Shown here piece after piece: positions 8,046 through 60,833 of a DNA stretch of 64,000 nucleotides (position 1 is the stretch's first letter; every line of letters starts with the position of its first letter). The DNA is taken from the NCBI GenBank assembly GCA_951406725.2, contig OX597819.1, forward strand, positions 45,074,001 through 45,138,000. Direction: 5' to 3'. This stretch comes from Octopus vulgaris (taxonomy: Eukaryota). The translations under genes were made by a program, and so were the position numbers. Under the pieces are notes generated by a model, which was not told the DNA's origin, did not search any database, and saw nothing but the letters and a program-made list of their open reading frames with translations.

Positions 8046-8639
8046 TATGGTCGTCAAATAATGTTAAACTAACAGCAGATCCAGAAGCAATCCTGTTACG
8101 TTGAGATTATCTCAATTCTACAGGTGAGCAACCGAAAGAGATTGAAAGGGCTAAAACTTTACTCCCTACAAAGGAAATGTAATAATTTTAACGCAAGCGT
8201 TCACACGAACATATACATACACACATAATAAACATGACTATATATACTGAGTATTCCAGATGTATCATAATGTAATCCTTGCATTGTCCTTTGCACACCT
8301 TAATGATTTGTCATACAAGATAATTGTAAACTGAGTATAGACCATGTAAGATCGTATTTTGTCTTTGCTTCCTTAAGCCTCGAAGATTATTCAGCACTCA
8401 AAATAACCTCGACATCAACAATAACTCATATGACCAACTTAAGCGTAACGTTTATAACTCGAATAATACTACCAACCAACAGAGTAACAATTACAATATC
8501 CATGATAATCACCCAAAACCTAACACCAGCAACAATTCAAATAATAAGCTGAGAACATCTAGTGATAATAAAACGATAATATTGACAACAAACATACCGA
8601 ACAGAACCAATCTCTCCAGTGCCCGATGTACACAAGCCA

Positions 8640-8830
8640 AAAAAATCAAACAGTTGTGCTCGTGCAGAGATAGATCCAATTGTCCTTTGGATAACCAATG
8701 TATGACTAAGAACGTGGTATACAAGTGCACTATAATCACTAGAGGAGGCACCTACGTATATATCGGGAATATAAAACACTATATCCCGGAAATACCAGTT
8801 ATGCACCAAGGGGCGCATTAAAAATAAATT
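8640..8830 (+). mobile_element. PLE GIY-YIG endonuclease N-terminal fragment with Cys-rich linker
   Basis: Translation CSCRDRSNCPLDNQCMTKNVVYKCTIITRGGTYVYIG (CxC-x5-CP-x4-C, then VVY...YIG). Confidence 0.8.
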
Positions 8831-9589: not shown

Positions 9590-9932
9590 ATTCTTCCATA
9601 CGTGTACATAAACGCGTGCATCTGATTGTGTGTATATGCCCATATACTTGGATGTGCGTGTGTGAGCGCTATGCATATGTGCGTCTTACACGAACACAAA
9701 AAATATTTGTCTAAATATTTTCTTCCTTTCAACGTCTACTTTTTCTTTCTCTTAACACACCAGCGAAAGCTCATTACGTCATTTTCTCTAAACTAGAATC
9801 TATACTTTCCACGTTCATATTTGAAGTTTTTCCTTTCACTAAATTTTCTGTTTCTACTCATACTCGAAATTGACGGACATATAGCTGTACGTAAGCCGAC
9901 TGAAGAAATCTCTAGTGAGACGTTTTATTGAT

Positions 9933-9982
9933 GTACCTGAAGAGACCCCGAATGGGTCGAGACATGTGATGTACCTAATAAA
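9933..9982 (+). ncRNA. Degenerate minimal hammerhead ribozyme followed by AATAAA
   Basis: gtac-CTGAAGA-gaccc-cgaat-gggtc-GAGAC-atgt-gat-gtac. GAAA is mutated to GAGA and the cleavage triplet is altered. Confidence 0.55.
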
Positions 9983-10296
9983 GTCTATTATATATTCCAT
10001 CTTCTAGTTTATTAATACTATACACACTCGCAAGTATGTAGTTGAAATTTGCAGAAAAGCAAAAGACGAAAACAGCTTTATAAACAAGCAGGTGTATTAG
10101 TTTCACGCTCGGGACGGTGAGAATGTCTTTTACTTTTCGAACCTACGCTCTTCAAGAGAGAAGAACAGAAGTATATAAACAAAGAGCGAATAAAAAAAAA
10201 ACTTGTGGATGTAGCAATCAATCATAGCAACTGGTAGAAATATATATATATATATATTGTGAAGGAAATCTAATTCTCGCCGACAACTATGATTGT

Positions 10297-10341
10297 CACA
10301 CGCTGACGAGAGGTCAATACCTCGAAACTCGAGTCCGTGTG
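10297..10341 (+). ncRNA. Minimal type I hammerhead ribozyme, copy 1 (predicted cleavage after C10335)
   Basis: cacacg-CTGACGA-gagg-tcaata-cctc-GAAAC-tcga-GTC-cgtgtg: perfect stems I and II, full core, palindromic loop III. Confidence 0.92.
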
Positions 10342-10648
10342 TATCATAAGTTGAAGACGGGAAGGATGACTTCCCTTTGCAAATACTGACAGGACACAGA
10401 AAGTGTGTCTATGGCCAGCTGGAGGAGTGTGTCCTCCTGGGGCTAAAAACTACAGTAGCATCCACCCTTAGGGGTAGCCATATTGAGATGGCAAATATAC
10501 GTCACGATGTGTTACCGCTACTGTATATAACTCACTTTGATATTTATCATTGTTTGATTTCACTTTTTCAATATCAGCGACAGTGGACGCTGGAAAAAGT
10601 ATAATTATTTGTGAAGGAAATCTAATTCTCGCCGACAACTATGATTGT

Positions 10649-10693
10649 CACACGCTGACGAGAGGTCAATACCTCGAAACTCGAGTCCGTGTG
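10649..10693 (+). ncRNA. Minimal type I hammerhead ribozyme, copy 2 (predicted cleavage after C10687)
   Basis: Identical to 10297-10341. Confidence 0.92.
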
Positions 10694-10879
10694 TATCATA
10701 AGTTGAAGACGGGAAGGATGACTTCCCTTTGCAAATACTGACAGGACACAGAAAGTGTGTCTATGGCCAGCTGGAGGAGTGTGTCCTCCTGGGGCTAAAA
10801 ACTACAGTAGCATCCACCCTTAGGGGTAGCCATATTGAGATGGCAAATATACGTCACTATATATATATATATATACCGA

Positions 10880-11180
10880 AATTGTGAAGTATATTTGCCA
10901 CCTAAATGTGGTTGGCCCATATGGGACGATGCTACTGTAATTTATAGCTCTAGGAAGACGTCTCCTCCGGCTGGCTAACAACACACTGTCCGATTAGTAT
11001 TTGCGATAGGAATTCATCATACCCACCTCTAGACTGACGTGATACACAGGGATCCGGGTTTCTGCGTAGTAACCCGTCATCAGCATGTGATAATCACCAG
11101 CTAGTGATGAGAAGTGATTTCGAACGCAAAGTACTATATGCTTTTTTCCAGTGAAAAAAGTCACTGATCTCGAAAAAGGA
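10880..11180 (-). mobile_element. Diverged inverted copy of the ~350-bp HHR unit; degenerate HHR at 11045-11089
   Basis: Minus strand reads cacatg-CTGATGA-cgggttactacgca-GAAAC-ccgg-ATC-cctgtg and shares TACAGTAGCATC and GGCAAATATACTTCAC with the 10.3-kb unit. Confidence 0.8.
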
Positions 11181-12357
11181 GAAACAAGCAATAATAAATC
11201 TCTGAGCCAGATGTAAAGAGTAGCTATAAACTACAATAGCATATATAACAGAAATATACAGTAGTATATATAACGGAAAATATACATCTAAAACGCAGCT
11301 GTTTTCCGACTTGTGGTACGCGTCTCTAAAGAATAATATGACAAGACAATAATATTATCAGTTCCAAGATTTAACGGCATCGGATTGCCTCCAACAGAGT
11401 GAAATAACCGTAATAAATGTGTATATGTTGGGTTGGCTACACACACACACACACAGAAACAAGCATATACATACATACCCCCCACACACACACACATATG
11501 TACGTATGCTGCTCCAGATTATTCTTGATCGAGACATCCTATAACAGAAAAGCATTTTGATCGTGGCCATCGCGTCTTTTTATTAGCATTAAGGAACGCT
11601 GAACAGATGTCATGTCCCTTCAAGACAATTGGTCATGACATTAGTAAATTTTACTATTATTTATTGGCAAGCAAAGATCTACGTTAGTGGCACTGCCTCG
11701 TCGATTCTATGTCTATGTTTGTATGTTCCGACGTCGTTAAACAAATATTAAATCATTAAGTCCGCATTACTCACTATTACCATTTGACTACTAACCTCGA
11801 TAAAATATTCAAATTGCTGCACTAAAACATTCTTTTGTAATTTTTCATAGGACGGCAGAAAAAAAAAATTATGAAATGCCATGACATTGTAACTGCATTT
11901 CACAGAAGCCTTGATTTCCTAAGCTTATATATACTATTGGCTTCGGTTCAGTCCCACTGCAATGCGCCTTGACAAGTGTTTTGTTCCATGGTCCCGAGTG
12001 AATTTGTTAAAGAAAGTCTCTCGTTCTTCTTCTTTCTCGAACTTACTCTCTCTGTATATCTATATATGCAAAAGTGAGAATGTGTGCCTCTCTTTCTGTC
12101 TGTATGTGTGCATCATAGGTTTTACTCATGCCTTACTTAGGGTCCATGCAGTGTTATGGACAATGCAAGTAATCTCTTATCTCTTCCCCTATTGCAGTAT
12201 TACGTGTAGAAAATGAAAGAATAACATATCTATTGTAACGTGAGACAATAATTTCAGTTTTAATACTTTCAGAATGTTTGTAATATATACATACTGAAAC
12301 TATTATCTCACTTACATATATATATTTGCACGTGTATATATGTGTATATAGATCTGA

Positions 12358-21054: not shown

Positions 21055-21594
21055 GAAACCCACAACTAACGAATAGCAACAAGAAAAACTAAGTTTGTGC
21101 TTATGTAACAAATCAATATTTATTCTGTTCATTTGCTTGATTCATTATCTGATGATCTTTGTGCGCTTGCCAACTTGTTTGTTTGCTATGTTTCCTATTT
21201 GATTTCACGGATATCAATTAACGGTTTACCTTTTGTTAAGTGGAACTTTCTCTGTGATACTGATATTCAATGTAACAGGTGTTAGAAAGAAGAAGTAATA
21301 GTAACATACAAAAACAAAACAAAAAATTTTAAAGGCCTGGTTAGACTAGTGAGGGAGAAAGAGAGAGAGAGAAAAAGAGAGATGGGGGAGTGAAATAAGA
21401 CGTTTGATTATTAACGTGGGAGCGTGAACAAATATGTCTGTTTATTTGTACTAAACACTTGTATAATCTTGAGCATAAAGATAATAGAAAACAAATTCAG
21501 CAACAAACATACGCCTACGCCCGAATATAAACATGTGTGTATGCAAGTATGAATGTATGTAAAAGATGTCTACATATATGTGTGCGTGTTTGTG

Positions 21595-21640
<46 letters not shown>

Positions 21641-21642
<2 letters not shown>

Positions 21643-21900
21643 TGGCACTCCGTCGGTTACGACGACGATGGTTCCAGTTGATCCGATCAACGGAACAGCC
21701 TCCACAGACACGTGTACCCTTAACGTAGTTTACGAGGAGATTCAGCGTGACATACAGGCTGACAAAGTAAGCCCTTTGAAATACAGGTAGAACAGAAATA
21801 GGAAAAAAAGAGTGTGAGAAAGAAAGTTGAGGTGAAAGAGTACAGCAGGGTTCGCCACCACTCTCTGCCAGATTCTCGTGGAACTTTAGGTGTTCTCTAC
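21641..21900 (-). mobile_element. SINE family C variant, 3' part (repeated at 24389-24646)
   Basis: GGCACTCCGTCGGTTACGACG...ACACGTGTACCCTTAACGTAG is the reverse complement of the family C tail. Confidence 0.8.
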
Positions 21901-22515
21901 CAGATAAGTAAAAGCTAGATAACCAAAAACAATGAACGAAAGTGAAATATCGACTCCAAAAAGTGTAAAGTTGACCTTCGTGGTATTTGAGCCCAGAATT
22001 CAGTGAGTCGGAAAGGTAACAACCAGAAAGCAAAATATCTACCTCTCTGACAACTCGTCCAAATGACTGCCTATGAAGCTGAACTCAAATAAAGAGAAAT
22101 ACAAGAGAAACAAACAAAATTCTGTTGATAATTTTCGTAAGTCAATGATCTGAGATCAAATCTTGCTGGGGTCTATATTTTATATAACTTTTCTTCAGAA
22201 AGAAGCTCCATGATCATGAATTTTGCAAATGTTCCAAAACAGGTGTAACTGATAGGGTTAATACTACATTTGAGCTATTCCAAGTGGATGACCGCAGATG
22301 AGACATGCGGCAGAACAGGGGAGACATTTTTAAGTAATGGTGTTCTGTAAATACTTATTATTTCATGCGGCCTATCGTCAGAGGGGTCACAGTATAGGTA
22401 TCAAGACGATTACAAATGAGCAAGTAAAAAGTGTCTAAACAGATATCGAACAAGACTTGTTCACACACATACAGAAAAAAAACCTCTATGCAACCAAATG
22501 AATATGTATATGTGT

Positions 22516-22580
<65 letters not shown>

Positions 22581-22786
22581 AGTATGATGATAGTTATGCA
22601 TGTACGTATGTATGTATAAGTTTATACACACAGAGACACACAGATGCACACACGCACACACAAACACACACATATATACATATACATATATATGAGTGTA
22701 TTGTAGTTCGCATGAAGCATTGAGTATTGTTTGTAAAGAATAAAAAGTATTCAATGGTATAACAATGCACTATAATACATAAATAC

Positions 22787-22811
<25 letters not shown>

Positions 22812-22854
<43 letters not shown>

Positions 22855-24159
22855 ATAACACTCTAATGGGAGCCTTAACTCCCAAATTTTAGTCATTTCG
22901 TTTATGATCCAAACTAGGTCAAAAGTACTGAATGTATCTTTAGGAAATTTGGAAATTATATTCTATGCATAAGGGCCATAACCCCCATGACAATTCATAT
23001 ATTTTTGCTGTTGATGAAATTTTAACCATATATATTAGACACAAATGAAGTAATATTTATAAAATTTCATCTTCTTACAAAGTTAGAAAGACCCCTCCAT
23101 GCACAATTTTGTCATTTTATATAAGCAAAAACGAATACAGTAGTGCTCTTGGAAGCTGTAGGGTTACCCGATCATAAAAGTTGGGTAGTATTTCTAATTC
23201 AATGGTACAACAGTGTAACAGTTTGCTTTGACATACACTTACATTGTGATTTCTGCAATGTGTTGCATAAATTGTCAAGTAAATTAGAGGCATATTTGCC
23301 TCCACTGATTCAGTTGCAAAGTGTTGAGTAACTTTATTTGATTGCAGACCTCCTTTCAGTCTTTTTGTTATCACTCGGTCACACATAGTCCCCAGATGGT
23401 AACATTGATTTCAAGGCCTTGCCAGATGAGTGACTGATTATTCAAAGACATTTATAGATTTTAAATTTATCCAGTCCAGTTACGTATCAGCATAGTGGTC
23501 ATCTGCAAACTCCAGAGTTGTCACTTTAATTTCTCCTTAGCCCTCACGTCACATAGTTGTTAATGTTTATATCAGTTGGGTCACGCCGTTCCAATTGCTA
23601 TAGGTTTGTAATGCATCTTACGGCTGTGCCTGTCACCTGGATGGTTAGGAATCCTACATTGGGAGTGGTAACGACTAGGGCAGGGTAACTGACTGCTTAT
23701 TGTGATCATTTGTCTTTTGGTTCCCTGTAGCTTTGCTCTCTTTTACAACCCCAGTGAACATATATTTCCTATTTCAAAGAAATTCAAACAATAGATATAA
23801 GACCCAAGTTAAAAGATTTTCAACAATTTTACTTATCTGGTTGACATTAAGACGCCCACCCCCAACAGGGGCCTTAACTCTCACATTTTAGAGCTCCATG
23901 ACCTTCATTTTTCAGGAGCAAAATCTTTTTAACAGGTTCAATAAGACTGAAATTTTGGAATATGCGCATAAAAATCAGTAGTATGGGATACATGTGGCAC
24001 GATTACAATTTTTTAGGGTGTGTAAAGAGGGAAATAACCCTGATCTGCAATTTTGATGAAATTCGAAACATAGATATTCTAGTTCATTACAGAAGATATA
24101 ACAGAAAAGTCTAATTCTTCAATTGAATGTAACCGGGCAACGCCGGGTATCTCTTCTAG
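22812..24159 (+). mobile_element. Probable non-autonomous Helitron (3' end clear, 5' boundary uncertain); duplicated copy ends at 26900
   Basis: Ends with a CCGGGCAACGCCGGGT hairpin followed 7 nt later by CTAG|T, a classic Helitron 3' terminus. Confidence 0.65.
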
Positions 24160-24342
24160 TATATATATATATAATTAAGTTTTCTTACAAATTATATATA
24201 TAGATATATATAATTAAGTTTTTATATATTANNNNNNNNNNNNNNNNNNNNNNNNNNNNNNNNNNNNNNNNNNNNNNNNNNNNNNNNNNNNNNNNNNNNN
24301 NNNNNNNNNNNNNNNNNNNNNNNNNNNNNNNGCGTGTTTGTG

Positions 24343-24390
<48 letters not shown>

Positions 24391-25262
24391 TGGCACTCCG
24401 TCGGTTACGACGACGATGGTTCCAGTTGATCCGATCAACGGAACAGCCTCCACAGACACGTGTACCCTTAACGTAGTTTACGAGGAGATTCAGCGTGACA
24501 TACAGGCTGACAAAGTAAGCCCTTTGAAATACAGGTAGAACAGAAATAGGAAAAAAGAGTGTGAGAAAGAAAGTTGAGGTGAAAGAGTACAGCAGGGTTC
24601 GCCACCACTCTCTGCCAGATTCTCGTGGAACTTTAGGTGTTCTCTACCAGATAAGTAAAAGCTAGATAACCAAAAACAATGAACGAAAGTGAAATATCGA
24701 CTCCAAAAAGTGTAAAGTTGACCTTCGTGGTATTTGAGCCCAGAATTCAGTGAGTCGGAAAGGTAACAACCAGAAAGCAAAATATCTACCTCTCTGACAA
24801 CTCGTCCAAATGACTGCCTATGAAGCTGAACTCAAATAAAGAGAAATACAAGAGAAACAAACAAAATTCTGTTGATAATTTTCGTAAGTCAATGATCTGA
24901 GATCAAATCTTGCTGGGGTCTATATTTTATATAACTTTTCTTCAGAAAGAAGCTCCATGATCATGAATTTTGCAAATGTTCCAAAACAGGTGTAACTGAT
25001 AGGGTTAATACTACATTTGAGCTATTCCAAGTGGATGACCGCAGATGAGACATGCGGCAGAACAGGGGAGACATTTTTAAGTAATGGTGTTCTGTAAATA
25101 CTTATTATTTCATGCGGCCTATCGTCAGAGGGGTCACAGTATAGGTATCAAGACGATTACAAATGAGCAAGTAAAAAGTGTCTAAACAGATATCGAACAA
25201 GACTTGTTCACACACATACAGAAAAAAAACCTCTATGCAACCAAATGAATATGTATATGTGT

Positions 25263-25319
<57 letters not shown>

Positions 25320-25521
25320 AGTATGATGATAGTTATGCATGTACGTATGTATGTATAAGTTTATACACACAGAGACACACAGATGCACACACGCACACAC
25401 AAACACACACATATATACATATACATATATATGAGTGTATTGTAGTTCGCATGAAGCATTGAGTATTGTTTGTAAAGAATAAAAAGTATTCAATGGTATA
25501 ACAATGCACTATAATACATAA

Positions 25522-25595
<74 letters not shown>

Positions 25596-27327
25596 ATAAC
25601 ACTCTAATGGGAGCCTTAACTCCCAAATTTTAGTCATTTCGTTTATGATCCAAACTAGGTCAAAAGTACTGAATGTATCTTTAGGAAATTTGGAAATTAT
25701 ATTCTATGCATAAGGGCCATAACCCCCATGACAATTCATATATTTTTGCTGTTGATGAAATTTTAACCATATATATTAGACACAAATGAAGTAATATTTA
25801 TAAAATTTCATCTTCTTACAAAGTTAGAAAGACCCCTCCATGCACAATTTTGTCATTTTATATAAGCAAAAACGAATACAGTAGTGCTCTTGGAAGCTGT
25901 AGGGTTACCCGATCATAAAAGTTGGGTAGTATTTCTAATTCAATGGTACAACAGTGTAACAGTTTGCTTTGACATACACTTACATTGTGATTTCTGCAAT
26001 GTGTTGCATAAATTGTCAAGTAAATTAGAGGCATATTTGCCTCCACTGATTCAGTTGCAAAGTGTTGAGTAACTTTATTTGATTGCAGACCTCCTTTCAG
26101 TCTTTTTGTTATCACTCGGTCACACATAGTCCCCAGATGGTAACATTGATTTCAAGGCCTTGCCAGATGAGTGACTGATTATTCAAAGACATTTATAGAT
26201 TTTAAATTTATCCAGTCCAGTTACGTATCAGCATAGTGGTCATCTGCAAACTCCAGAGTTGTCACTTTAATTTCTCCTTAGCCCTCACGTCACATAGTTG
26301 TTAATGTTTATATCAGTTGGGTCACGCCGTTCCAATTGCTATAGGTTTGTAATGCATCTTACGGCTGTGCCTGTCACCTGGATGGTTAGGAATCCTACAT
26401 TGGGAGTGGTAACGACTAGGGCAGGGTAACTGACTGCTTATTGTGATCATTCGTCTTTTGGTTCCCTGTAGCTTTGCTCTCTTTTACAACCCCAGTGAAC
26501 ATATATTTCCTATTTCAAAGAAATTCAAACAATAGATATAAGACCCAAGTTAAAAGATTTTCAACAATTTTACTTATCTGGTTGACATTAAGACGCCCAC
26601 CCCCAACAGGGGCCTTAACTCTCACATTTTAGAGCTCCATGACCTTCATTTTTCAGGAGCAAAATCTTTTTAACAGGTTCAATAAGACTGAAATTTTGGA
26701 ATATGCGCATAAAAATCAGTAGTATGGGATACATGTGGCACGATTACAATTTTTTAGGGTGTGTAAAGAGGGAAATAACCCTGATCTGCAATTTTGATGA
26801 AATTCGAAACATAGATATTCTAGTTCATTACAGAAGATATAACAGAAAAGTCTAATTCTTCAATTGAATGTAACCGGGCAACGCCGGGTATCTCTTCTAG
26901 TATATATATATATAATTAAGTTTTCTTACAAATTATATATATAGATATATATAATTAAGTTTTTATATATTATGTACTTCACAATATATGGGTTGTATTA
27001 AGACGTACCCATTGCAAGCTAAATCGAAAGGTAAGGGAAGGAACATGGCTAGGCAATCGATAGGAATACCAAAGCGTAATTTATAGCACGCAACGAAATA
27101 AATATACATATAAATTTATATAAATAAATGAATAAAATTGCATGCAAAATTACATGTGAAGACTATGCATTATGTACGTTGGCTTCACATACCATTCGGT
27201 ATGTGAACCCATCGTACATGATATATAGTTTTTACATATAACATTTATATTTATTTCGTTGTGTGCTCTAAATTATGGCTTGGAATTTGGATCTATTGCC
27301 TAGATGTTTTCCTTCTATAATTTCTCT

Positions 27328-31112: not shown

Positions 31113-31519
31113 GTAGTTGCACGACAATATGAAGTATATTTGCCAGTGGCAAATATACTTCACATTGTCTTGCAGCTACTGTGTATGCCTCGTTTAGTGA
31201 TTTACTATGGCCTGTTTACACTTTTTCGAGACCAGTGACTTTTCGTCACTGGAAAAAGGATATATGTATTTGCATTGGGACCCCTTCACATCGAAGACTG
31301 GTGATTGTCGTGCGTTGACGACGGGTAAAAATCCAGAAACCCGGGTCCGTGCGTATCACGTCAGGTCGCCGACGGGAAGGATAGCTTTCCTTTACAAATA
31401 CTGATATGGCACAGAAAGTGTGTCAATAGCCAACTGAAGATGTTCTCCTGGGGCAACAAGCTACAGTAGCATCCACCCTTAGTGATTAGCCACATTTAAG
31501 TCACAAATATACTTCACAT
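31113..31519 (+). mobile_element. Single ~354-bp HHR unit with 16-bp terminal redundancy and ~33-bp inverted 5' tail; HHR at 31309-31353 (C3>U)
   Basis: cgtgcg-TTGACGA-cgggtaaaaatcca-GAAAC-ccgg-GTC-cgtgcg; CAAATATACTTCACAT at 31150 and 31504; 31113-31145 is inverted relative to 31147-31180. Confidence 0.8.
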
Positions 31520-59399: not shown

Positions 59400-60833
59400 C
59401 ACTGAACCGTAAAAGAAACGCGAGACGTATGTGACTGAAATATGTTTTAATTTCATTATGTCAGAGATGAATTTTAATAAATCTGATAAAGTTAATTTCT
59501 TGAGTGCACTTTGACCACAATCTATGGATCATGATCATGTGTTCTGGTAGTGGGTGGATCCAGCACATCAAGACTGTAGGGCGTGACATTTTCAATATCG
59601 TATATGCAAACCTTGGGTGTTCAAAATGGTGATACACCGTCGGTACATTGAGTGCATGATGCGGTTTATAAAAGCCATAGGCACCTGTGCCCACACACTG
59701 AGGAGAACCTCTAGTTCCACACGAGTTGTCGACCTTGGGACCACCTGGTTCAGCCGTCTCCAGATTTCATCACACAGGTGTTCAGTTAGGTTCAAATCTG
59801 TGCTGAGAACCGGTGACGGCATGCTTCTGATGTTGTGATGACGCAGGAAGTCCATGGTGAACTTGACCGTGTGGAAGGGAACATTGTTCTGCTGGAACAC
59901 ATGGGTATGGTGATGCGCGAAGTAGAGAAAGGTGTGAGGTCTTAGGAGCTGGTCAAGGTAGCGGTGCGCTGTGAATCCATTCCTTCTGCTAGCACCATCA
60001 TTTTGGGACACATGGGACTCAATTATCTGATTCAGGCCTATAGTACCCCAAGCCACCCCACGCGCCTTTTTCCATGACATAAGCGTTTCTGTAACGTTCA
60101 TCACTCCTGCGCCACATCCACACTCTGCCAACCGAGGTGGAAACACAGTACCGGCTCTCGTCAGAGAAGACTATCGATCTCTATTGTTGACACTGCCAAT
60201 TTCGGTGCTGTGTAGCCCATTGTAGTCGTGCCTGACGGTGGCAGGCAGTGAGGACAGGGCCTCGAGCAGGACAACGCCAGTGCAGGTTGCTTGCGGCCAG
60301 TGGACGTCGTACCGTGTCGAAGCTGATTGGTCGCTATCCAGTGTCATTGGTCTCGCGAGCTGTCATGCTGGCCGGTGTGAAGCGATCACGGAGGTGTTGC
60401 AGGTGGATGAAGCGGTCCAGCCTGAGCGTGGCCACCTGGGGACGCCCTCTGCGGGCAGGGTCTGCAGTGCTTATCGCTGTTGAAGGCGATAGATGGTGCT
60501 GATATGGACATCGTAAGCTTTCGCAAAAACCAGGGCACACTGCCCTACTTGCAGTCGGCCGATTACTTATTCTCTCTGCGTTACTGACGATCGGGTCATA
60601 TCTGATGGGTCCAAATTTCGAATGAGCATTTCGGTTTTCATGACAATTGTTTGCTACTGTCACCCTCGGCATTCAACGTAGCTGCATTTTGACGTTTCTT
60701 TTCAGAGAAAGTTGAACGGTTCCTGCAATTTGGGTCTCAGCAATAAACCAGCATGTCTTGGAACATGTTCAGAATTTACCATATAAATATGACATTTAAA
60801 AAAAAAAACACGTTTCTTTTGCGGGCTCATCTT
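59400..60833 (-). mobile_element. Near full-length Tc1-family DNA transposon, transposase pseudogenised
   Basis: TIRs CACTGAACCGTAAAAGAAACG / CGTTTCTTTTGCGGGCTCATC; GRPQVATLRLDRFI; FQQNNVPFHT...STDLNLTEHLCDEI...SMYRRC...GLHIRY (degenerate DD34E). Confidence 0.9.

Follow-up and report, generated by a model that had tools for sequence, protein, structure and literature searches.

The window, meaning the whole 64,000-nt stretch of Octopus vulgaris DNA that was analysed, harbours a 601-bp insertion of a retrozyme family at positions 10257–10857 (forward strand). The insertion comprises 1.7 turns of a 352-nt unit, is truncated at its 5´ end and stops at a 3´ site that is fixed in the family (site A). 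It is bordered by (TA)8 on the left (10241–10256) and by (TA)9 on the right (10858–10875). The right-hand run is common to the 3´ end of an older relative, ~70% identical, which lies tail to tail with the young copy on the reverse strand (10881–11224) and contains a decayed hammerhead near 11043–11104. Another older relative (73% identical) is found at 31147–31517 on the forward strand.

Hammerhead ribozymes of the insertion

An exact 249-bp direct repeat with a period of 352 (10257–10505 and 10609–10857, forward strand) carries one hammerhead ribozyme per copy. The first, with its distal helix I, occupies 10290–10346 (core 10297–10341) and the second 10642–10698 (core 10649–10693), both on the forward strand. 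The two 45-nt cores are identical, and their GUC triplets end at 10335 and 10687, after which the cuts are predicted. A first-pass annotation, made from the letters alone, had reported a pair of identical type I hammerheads, spaced 352 nt, between (TA)n runs, and this is borne out by the exact repeat, the identical cores and the two TA runs.

Helix I comprises 6 bp with a distal part of 4 bp, helix II has 4 bp, and the 2-bp helix III is closed by the palindromic loop UCGA. The ribozymes had been described as minimal, of type I. The type stands, but the available text of Cervera and de la Peña 2014 (PMC4209133) defines the minimal hammerhead of Penelope-like elements (PLEs) by the lack of helix III, a long helix II and an extra base after position 9. 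The ribozyme of the unit has none of these traits: helix III is present, helix II has 4 bp and there is no extra base, as in the canonical metazoan form. Each of the two hammerheads scores 32.2 bits (E 1.1e-5) with the Rfam Hammerhead_1 model; because this falls below the gathering score of 34, the Rfam scan of the window at the gathering threshold is empty. Rfam microRNA matches at 10792–10950 were discarded, as they arise from the young and old copies that lie tail to tail around the TA run.

The predicted cut-to-cut monomer (10336–10687, forward strand) has 352 nt and a GC content of 42.6%. Its longest Met frame on the circle encodes 38 amino acids, and no Pol III A and B boxes were found in a strict scan of the unit. 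The monomer folds at −118 kcal/mol (z −5.9), with 0 of 100 shuffles as good. Among the four hairpins named beforehand, those of GACAC and GGAGGA are part of the minimum-energy fold, whereas GGGAAG/CTTCCC and GCCAT/ATGGC are absent from it. When the 601-nt transcript is modelled, the cost relative to the most stable structure is 3.5 kcal/mol for the double hammerhead, 5.9 for a single monomer fold and 11.8 for two; these values are model energies and not activity. The energies, together with a loop III palindrome retained across subfamilies, lend support to the earlier idea that the ribozymes may cleave as dimers. The release of a 352-nt RNA from this locus, and its circularisation, would be expected from the sequence.

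Pairing was analysed in 19 copies from three subfamilies. The hammerhead is paired in 91% of cells, a value that 0 of 500 shuffles reach and that compares with at most 52% in slid controls; the shuffle test is inflated by the relatedness of the copies, and two of five measures are not above the shuffles. In loop III, the outermost palindrome pair is C–G in 11 copies, U–G in five and U–A in three. Retention of the palindrome through this series is only sensible if one ribozyme pairs with another. At the second pair of helix II, 12 copies have G–C and seven A–U, while the first pair of this helix is unpaired in 12 of the 19, mostly old copies. This substitution pattern indicates that the hammerhead is under selection, with compensatory change over ~30% divergence.

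A family of non-LTR retrozymes with Penelope-like footprints

Judging from matches across the genome (2.8 Gb, 227 contigs), the insertion is one copy of a young, multi-copy, non-coding family of 352-nt hammerhead repeats. A 26-nt ribozyme half has 468 exact copies in the genome, and its reversed control has none. The unit as a query returned 3077 first-look candidates, 40 of which were scored and gave 180 matches. The mapped set comprises 95 loci and 94 distinct insertions, since one locus (L100) was dropped as a duplicate of another (L099); at L101, one additional fragment was not counted. L099 and L100 (G000 C1, ~1 Mb apart) represent a single insertion with identical flanks, inverted, which points to a segmental duplication or an assembly duplicate. 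Long, young arrays are over-represented in the set because loci were picked by best score or from among the first 100 exact ribozyme-half matches. When the last 64 bases alone were used for picking, 14 of 17 insertions crossed the cut site.

The period is 352–353 nt and arrays range from 0.2 to ~7 units, with a maximum of 6.9. They are dispersed over many contigs and are 97–100% alike. Older relatives at ~87% and ~70% identity, two of them within the window, have the same unit and the same 3´ ends. The first-pass annotation took the identical repeats as the sign of a recent event; the youth is confirmed, although copying from a single template also contributes to the identity. At L069:2396-5882, a retrozyme copy and a T-rich satellite have been duplicated together, the two blocks being 3.25 kb apart; this is not a PLE.

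A search of sequencing runs gave no match recorded as RNA; 20 rows from 11 studies had at least half of the query words, 14 of the 20 being only guessed to be RNA, and the contigs of four such runs were examined. One 383-nt contig in X5, from a run only guessed to be RNA, starts and ends in the same phase (353 + 30). The contig was not taken as evidence for a circle, since this phase would arise equally from a circle, from a transcript of a tandem array or from the tandem DNA itself.

The assignment to the non-LTR retrozymes, proposed from the outset, was upheld on every feature that could be tested. Tandem repeats within 150–450 bp occur as dimers to multimers at many loci; the unit encodes no protein, and its 42.6% GC lies below the limit of 45–50% used for retrozymes. 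No LTR–internal–LTR layout was found in the mapped arrays. According to the available text of Cervera and de la Peña 2020 (PMC7229834), animal non-LTR retrozymes occur in mussel, coral and axolotl as abundant circles, with the mobiliser left open. As in this family, the Mytilus (350–390 bp) and axolotl (353 bp) retrozymes described there have a short, low-GC tandem unit with one canonical type I hammerhead per unit. They are also alike in the 2-bp helix III with a tetraloop, the self-paired monomer, the absence of protein and the presence of autonomous PLEs in the same genome. That work shows circles and not a mobiliser, whereas the octopus family displays a PLE insertion signature, its circle being putative. 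Its main text, as far as available, names no cephalopod retrozyme; its supplement may list further invertebrates.

More recently, Li, Clavereau and Pollet 2026 (bioRxiv 10.64898/2026.07.22.740005) have interpreted vertebrate retrozymes as non-autonomous PLE derivatives, on the basis of co-occurrence and of homology to PLE pseudo-LTRs (pLTRs) in Xenopus, where only one of nine retrozyme dimers cleaved in vitro, a point against the model preferred below. Their conclusion that the partner is a PLE agrees with the one reached here. In the parts of that preprint available, no mollusc is sampled and the mechanism is open, whereas the octopus evidence comes from how the copies are inserted and includes no pLTR homology to the PLE groups examined. 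No published description of this family, of such an anatomy in a retrozyme or of the LINE target described below was found; subscription papers and Repbase lay outside the search, and cataloguing under another name is possible. The family is therefore presented as a new family of an already known kind, the non-LTR retrozyme, which is known in molluscs.

Insertions of the family end at two fixed 3´ sites ~45 nt apart, A (unit 247–253; 10503–10509 in the window, forward strand) and B (unit 292–300; 10548–10556, forward strand). The window copy ends at site A one unit further on, at 10857. Among the 94 insertions, 46 are head to head, of which 40 combine A with B, none A with A, none B with B, and six have one odd end. 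Another 45 have a single arm (37 ending at A, six at B, two odd), and three further insertions are complex. A TA run adjoins the 3´ end in 123 of 137 cases. Both flanks are mostly TA runs, so target duplications cannot be told there. The 5´ ends are scattered and fall at the cut site in only 4 of 137 cases (p 0.55), without any pile-up, and the cut junction shows no indel in 242 passes. In three insertions (L101, L112 and L114), the innermost units of both inverted arms share rare alleles, as hairpin repair at the centre of a palindrome would give.

The copies therefore carry the insertion signature of PLEs: 5´ truncation, an inverted 5´ partner, two 3´ ends defining a tail, and an AT-rich target. 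The inverted 5´ partner and a tail of 30–40 bp are given as PLE marks in the accessible part of Craig et al. 2021 (PMC8557442). In the available text of Frangieh et al. 2024 (PMC11167929), the Anolis PLE Poseidon nicks both strands of AT-rich DNA in vitro, and two internal start sites define the tail. By analogy, A and B would be PLE-type internal starts of reverse transcription, one per DNA end, and the A-to-B stretch a PLE-type tail. Poseidon and the PLEs of PMC8557442 share the two fixed 3´ ends, the inverted 5´-truncated partner and the AT-rich or (TA)n target with the retrozyme; in contrast, they are autonomous with tails of 30–40 nt, while the retrozyme is non-coding with a ~45-nt tail and a 352-nt period. 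Chlamys elements such as MRC1 are likewise non-autonomous, with multicopy head-to-tail insertions made by PLE machinery. However, their 3´ end resembles that of the autonomous partner and their clade is mostly without hammerheads, as described in the portion of PMC8557442 consulted, unlike the retrozyme.

The proposed RNA template and a candidate copying enzyme

The form in which the retrozyme spreads is probably a small circular RNA, reverse-transcribed over repeated turns into (TA)n DNA by a PLE-type reverse transcriptase (RT). A two-unit transcript is expected to adopt the double-hammerhead fold and to be cut after 10335 and 10687, and a host ligase, as the mussel and axolotl work would suggest, would close the 352-nt monomer. 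A PLE protein would presumably nick both (TA)n strands and initiate cDNA synthesis at an internal position of the RNA, A or B, which lie ~170 and ~215 nt beyond the cut. Since a circle has no terminus at which to halt, the RT would pass the ligated cut site repeatedly and generate 0.2–7 like units with scattered 5´ ends. Priming by both DNA ends, one at A and one at B, would account for the head-to-head insertions that are observed.

The alleles of the arrays bear on the template. Columns 205–223 and gap calls were excluded from the variant count, as gap placement at unit 218–219 inflates it. Substitution differences amount to 399 in 65,648 pairs within an arm, 345 in 38,835 across arms and 24,781 in 1,364,862 between insertions. 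At seven sites polymorphic in the family, 52 of 2392 pairs are discordant within an insertion (2%) versus 9234 of 28,419 between insertions (32%). Of the 60 loci that comprise at least three passes, 16 have a rare allele fixed in every pass, several of them in the two arms alike, and non-singleton alleles are fixed within the array in 96 cases versus only partly spread in 20. The longest array (6.9 units) has alleles that recur in all 8 passes of its two arms, and the seven highest-ranking matches to it are units from within the array; no outside match of at least 98% that could be a longer parent was found among 40 scored candidates. Rare alleles fixed over up to eight passes and both arms, with no longer parent, require a one-unit bottleneck. 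Allele sharing within insertions fits the repeated copying of one monomer, likely a circle. Most simply, a circle would explain at once the allele fixation, the seamless cut junction and the lack of a 5´-end pile-up.

Several observations speak against a circle. In L128, two alleles follow each other identically in both arms when these are read from the 3´ end, which a multimeric template would produce, L136 and L117 are unit-level mosaics, and an allele seemingly private to one of the 94 insertions is matched exactly at two further places. The patterns of L128, L136 and L117 favour an alternative, rather unlikely overall, in which the template of the PLE machinery is an uncut tandem transcript and units are added when the enzyme jumps back by one period, the hammerhead only processing or stabilising the RNA and the circle being no template. 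Parallels are available for such a process. According to the accessible text of PMC11167929, the hammerhead of the anole PLE is dispensable for insertion in vitro, uncut RNA is the main template there and no reads end at the cut. Moreover, the head-to-tail arrays of the non-autonomous Chlamys elements (PMC8557442) and the tandem cDNA that a bacterial RT makes from a non-coding RNA (PMC12039810), both as far as the available texts describe them, resemble its expected products. Jumping back on uncut RNA would leave DNA identical to that left by a circle, and DNA alone cannot separate the two. The alleles fixed over up to eight passes in both arms without a longer parent, the ribozyme retained with compensatory change over ~30% divergence and the abundance of related retrozymes as circles in mussel, coral and axolotl (PMC7229834, in its available part) weigh against it. 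The copying of a circle remains the preferred reading. Mother-to-daughter tracing, by singletons of one locus that are fixed in another, gave cases inseparable from recurrent mutation and was abandoned. In L113, L137 and L003, single units mix alleles of the 352-nt and 353-nt haplotypes, by template switching or conversion.

A candidate motor of the retrozyme, proposed from its sequence features, is a young PLE (L061–L068) with a 781-aa open frame for RT and GIY-YIG domains and many copies at 95–100% identity. Its Pfam RVT_1 match (28.9 bits) is just below the cut-off and the GIY-YIG match is above it. This PLE ends in (TA)n, the target of the retrozyme as well, with its own two 3´ ends ~35 nt apart. 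The label Neptune is applied here provisionally by the Cys motif ahead of the endonuclease, a motif described in the available text of PMC8557442, and not from a tree. A second, older Neptune-like family (L107:2-2030, L289–L318) has its own two 3´ ends ~45 nt apart. A third PLE group is represented in the window by a decayed Cys-rich GIY-YIG fragment (8330–8821, forward strand), which gave 8093 first-look candidates and no long open frame among the 150 of them that were scored. Nearby, a decayed hammerhead-like motif (9931–9976, forward strand; Rfam 15.3 bits, E 4.4) lies in another repeat, probably a PLE end.

The search for a parent PLE covered GIY-YIG loci, eight full Neptune-like loci, and 30 loci of each of the families of window 8330–8821 and of L107. 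It is very unlikely that the retrozyme represents no more than the pLTR of some autonomous PLE, with the insertions as its 5´-truncated copies, even though the insertion anatomy is that of PLE ends and the L107 insertion sits directly behind a Neptune-like reading frame. A Neptune-like protein remnant is near only 2 of the 95 retrozyme loci, with the frame adjoined at one of 95, and the L107-family element reaches its own 3´ end in 29 of the 30 best copies; the unit is thus not an ordinary pLTR of the families examined. Arrays repeat without any frame between units, and the only 5´ flank common to loci at high identity belongs to a LINE. Furthermore, the canonical hammerhead of the retrozyme differs from the hammerhead-like core, with a U3–A8 change, in the pLTR of the 781-aa family. 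Comparison of the unit with the pLTRs of three PLE groups gave no significant match, the best local 3´ alignment being equalled by 104 of 500 shuffles. The ordinary terminus of an autonomous PLE, which the first-pass annotation had named as the outcome that would undo its proposal, was thus looked for at the RT–GIY-YIG junction and at the 3´ ends, and was not what these revealed. At L282, one of the 30 loci of the window 8330–8821 family, an old relative (62%) precedes the endonuclease match by ~950 bases and is taken to have inserted there by chance.

Growth of the arrays as a minisatellite after insertion, from single units by unequal crossing-over or conversion, is likewise highly improbable: adjacent units share some alleles (L134, L136, L137, L140) and Li et al. 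2026 propose, in the part available, local amplification from PLE ends, but the arrays are dispersed and 97–100% alike, and every one of them ends at a fixed 3´ site and begins at a scattered 5´ position. In addition, the 96 fixed alleles, as against 20 partly spread, extend across the inversion, and no array above ~7 units was found.

A LINE inserted in the retrozyme

The only 5´ flank common at high identity, found at two retrozyme loci, is a 5.3-kb LINE. Its ORF2 contains the Pfam domains Exo_endo_phos (APE), RVT_1 (RT) and zf-RVT (zinc finger), and its closest named relative is from Argonauta hians (58%). We provisionally take this LINE to be L1/Tx1-like from its domains, not from a tree. 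Among the best 30 LINE 3´ ends (196 candidates, 40 scored), 20 are followed by unit position 21, in the young and 87% subfamilies. The other 10 lie in other sequence, eight of them behind one different shared motif. The LINE loci in the retrozyme (L206, L207, L239–L255) have their insertion point at unit 20|21. A duplication of ~20 bp (unit 21–40) is present in 14 of the 20 LINE ends whose 5´ side was read, one of them 5´-truncated, and absent in six. In the window, this 20-bp target is present twice on the forward strand, at 10277–10296 and 10629–10648, and is empty at both sites. As the site is directly ahead of helix I, a whole hammerhead follows each LINE. A contig from a run only guessed to be RNA spans a retrozyme–LINE junction resembling that of L239.

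On these flanks, the APE–RT LINE is target-specific for the retrozyme: 20 of 30 flanks on one target type exceed the >20% that the available text of PMC4494074 takes for target specificity. Tx1-clade LINEs are reported there to target other transposons and RNA genes (Tx1 in Tx1D, Tx1-Mar, Keno). They resemble the octopus LINE in the APE–RT organisation, the use of one site in a multicopy element and the target duplication, while the target is here a ribozyme retroelement. A literature search for Tx1 together with retrozyme found no paper, and a LINE that chooses a 20-bp retrozyme site is a target type not found in print in the searches run. Sister LINEs (L231–L238; G000 C2 near 14.7 Mb, C27 near 22.8–26.3 Mb) sit on a different target motif; several are at ~13-kb spacing, which suggests a second multicopy target.

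The LINE lies in the last unit in 19 of 19 cases running on, yet of the 104 sites of this kind, 71 fall in last units in any case. Movement of LINE-plus-retrozyme composites by PLE machinery was considered and is not supported, as truncated LINE copies keep the duplication (L253, with two tandem LINE copies around one target site) and a pair of nicks made by the enzyme of the LINE would account for L251, although L240 and L241 have no upstream piece.

What copies animal retrozymes into DNA, and from which RNA, is called open in the available texts of PMC7229834 and Li et al. 2026. The insertion event is readable here because the family is young: it reveals both start sites exactly, shows the target, points to a template of one unit and comes with an intact candidate enzyme in the same genome. 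With start sites, target and candidate enzyme at hand, retrozyme mobilisation can go to an in vitro assay as for the anole PLE. A natural route of insertion from circle to DNA would also matter for RNA-templated gene insertion. Tentatively, a chain of three tiers can be envisaged, in which a Neptune-type PLE would roll the hammerhead circle into (TA)n from two internal starts, and the LINE ahead of the ribozyme would be transcribed by retrozyme read-through and freed by the flanking hammerheads. A comparable strategy is that of R2, which uses rRNA transcription and its own ribozyme. If true, this chain would fix the missing step of the animal retrozyme cycle.

Elsewhere in the window, two near-identical segments (21500–22900 and 24200–25600) flank an N run, likely as a local duplication or an assembly overlap. 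Finally, a 192-aa frame at 59592–60170 (reverse strand) resembles what is presumably a piece of a Tc1/mariner transposase.
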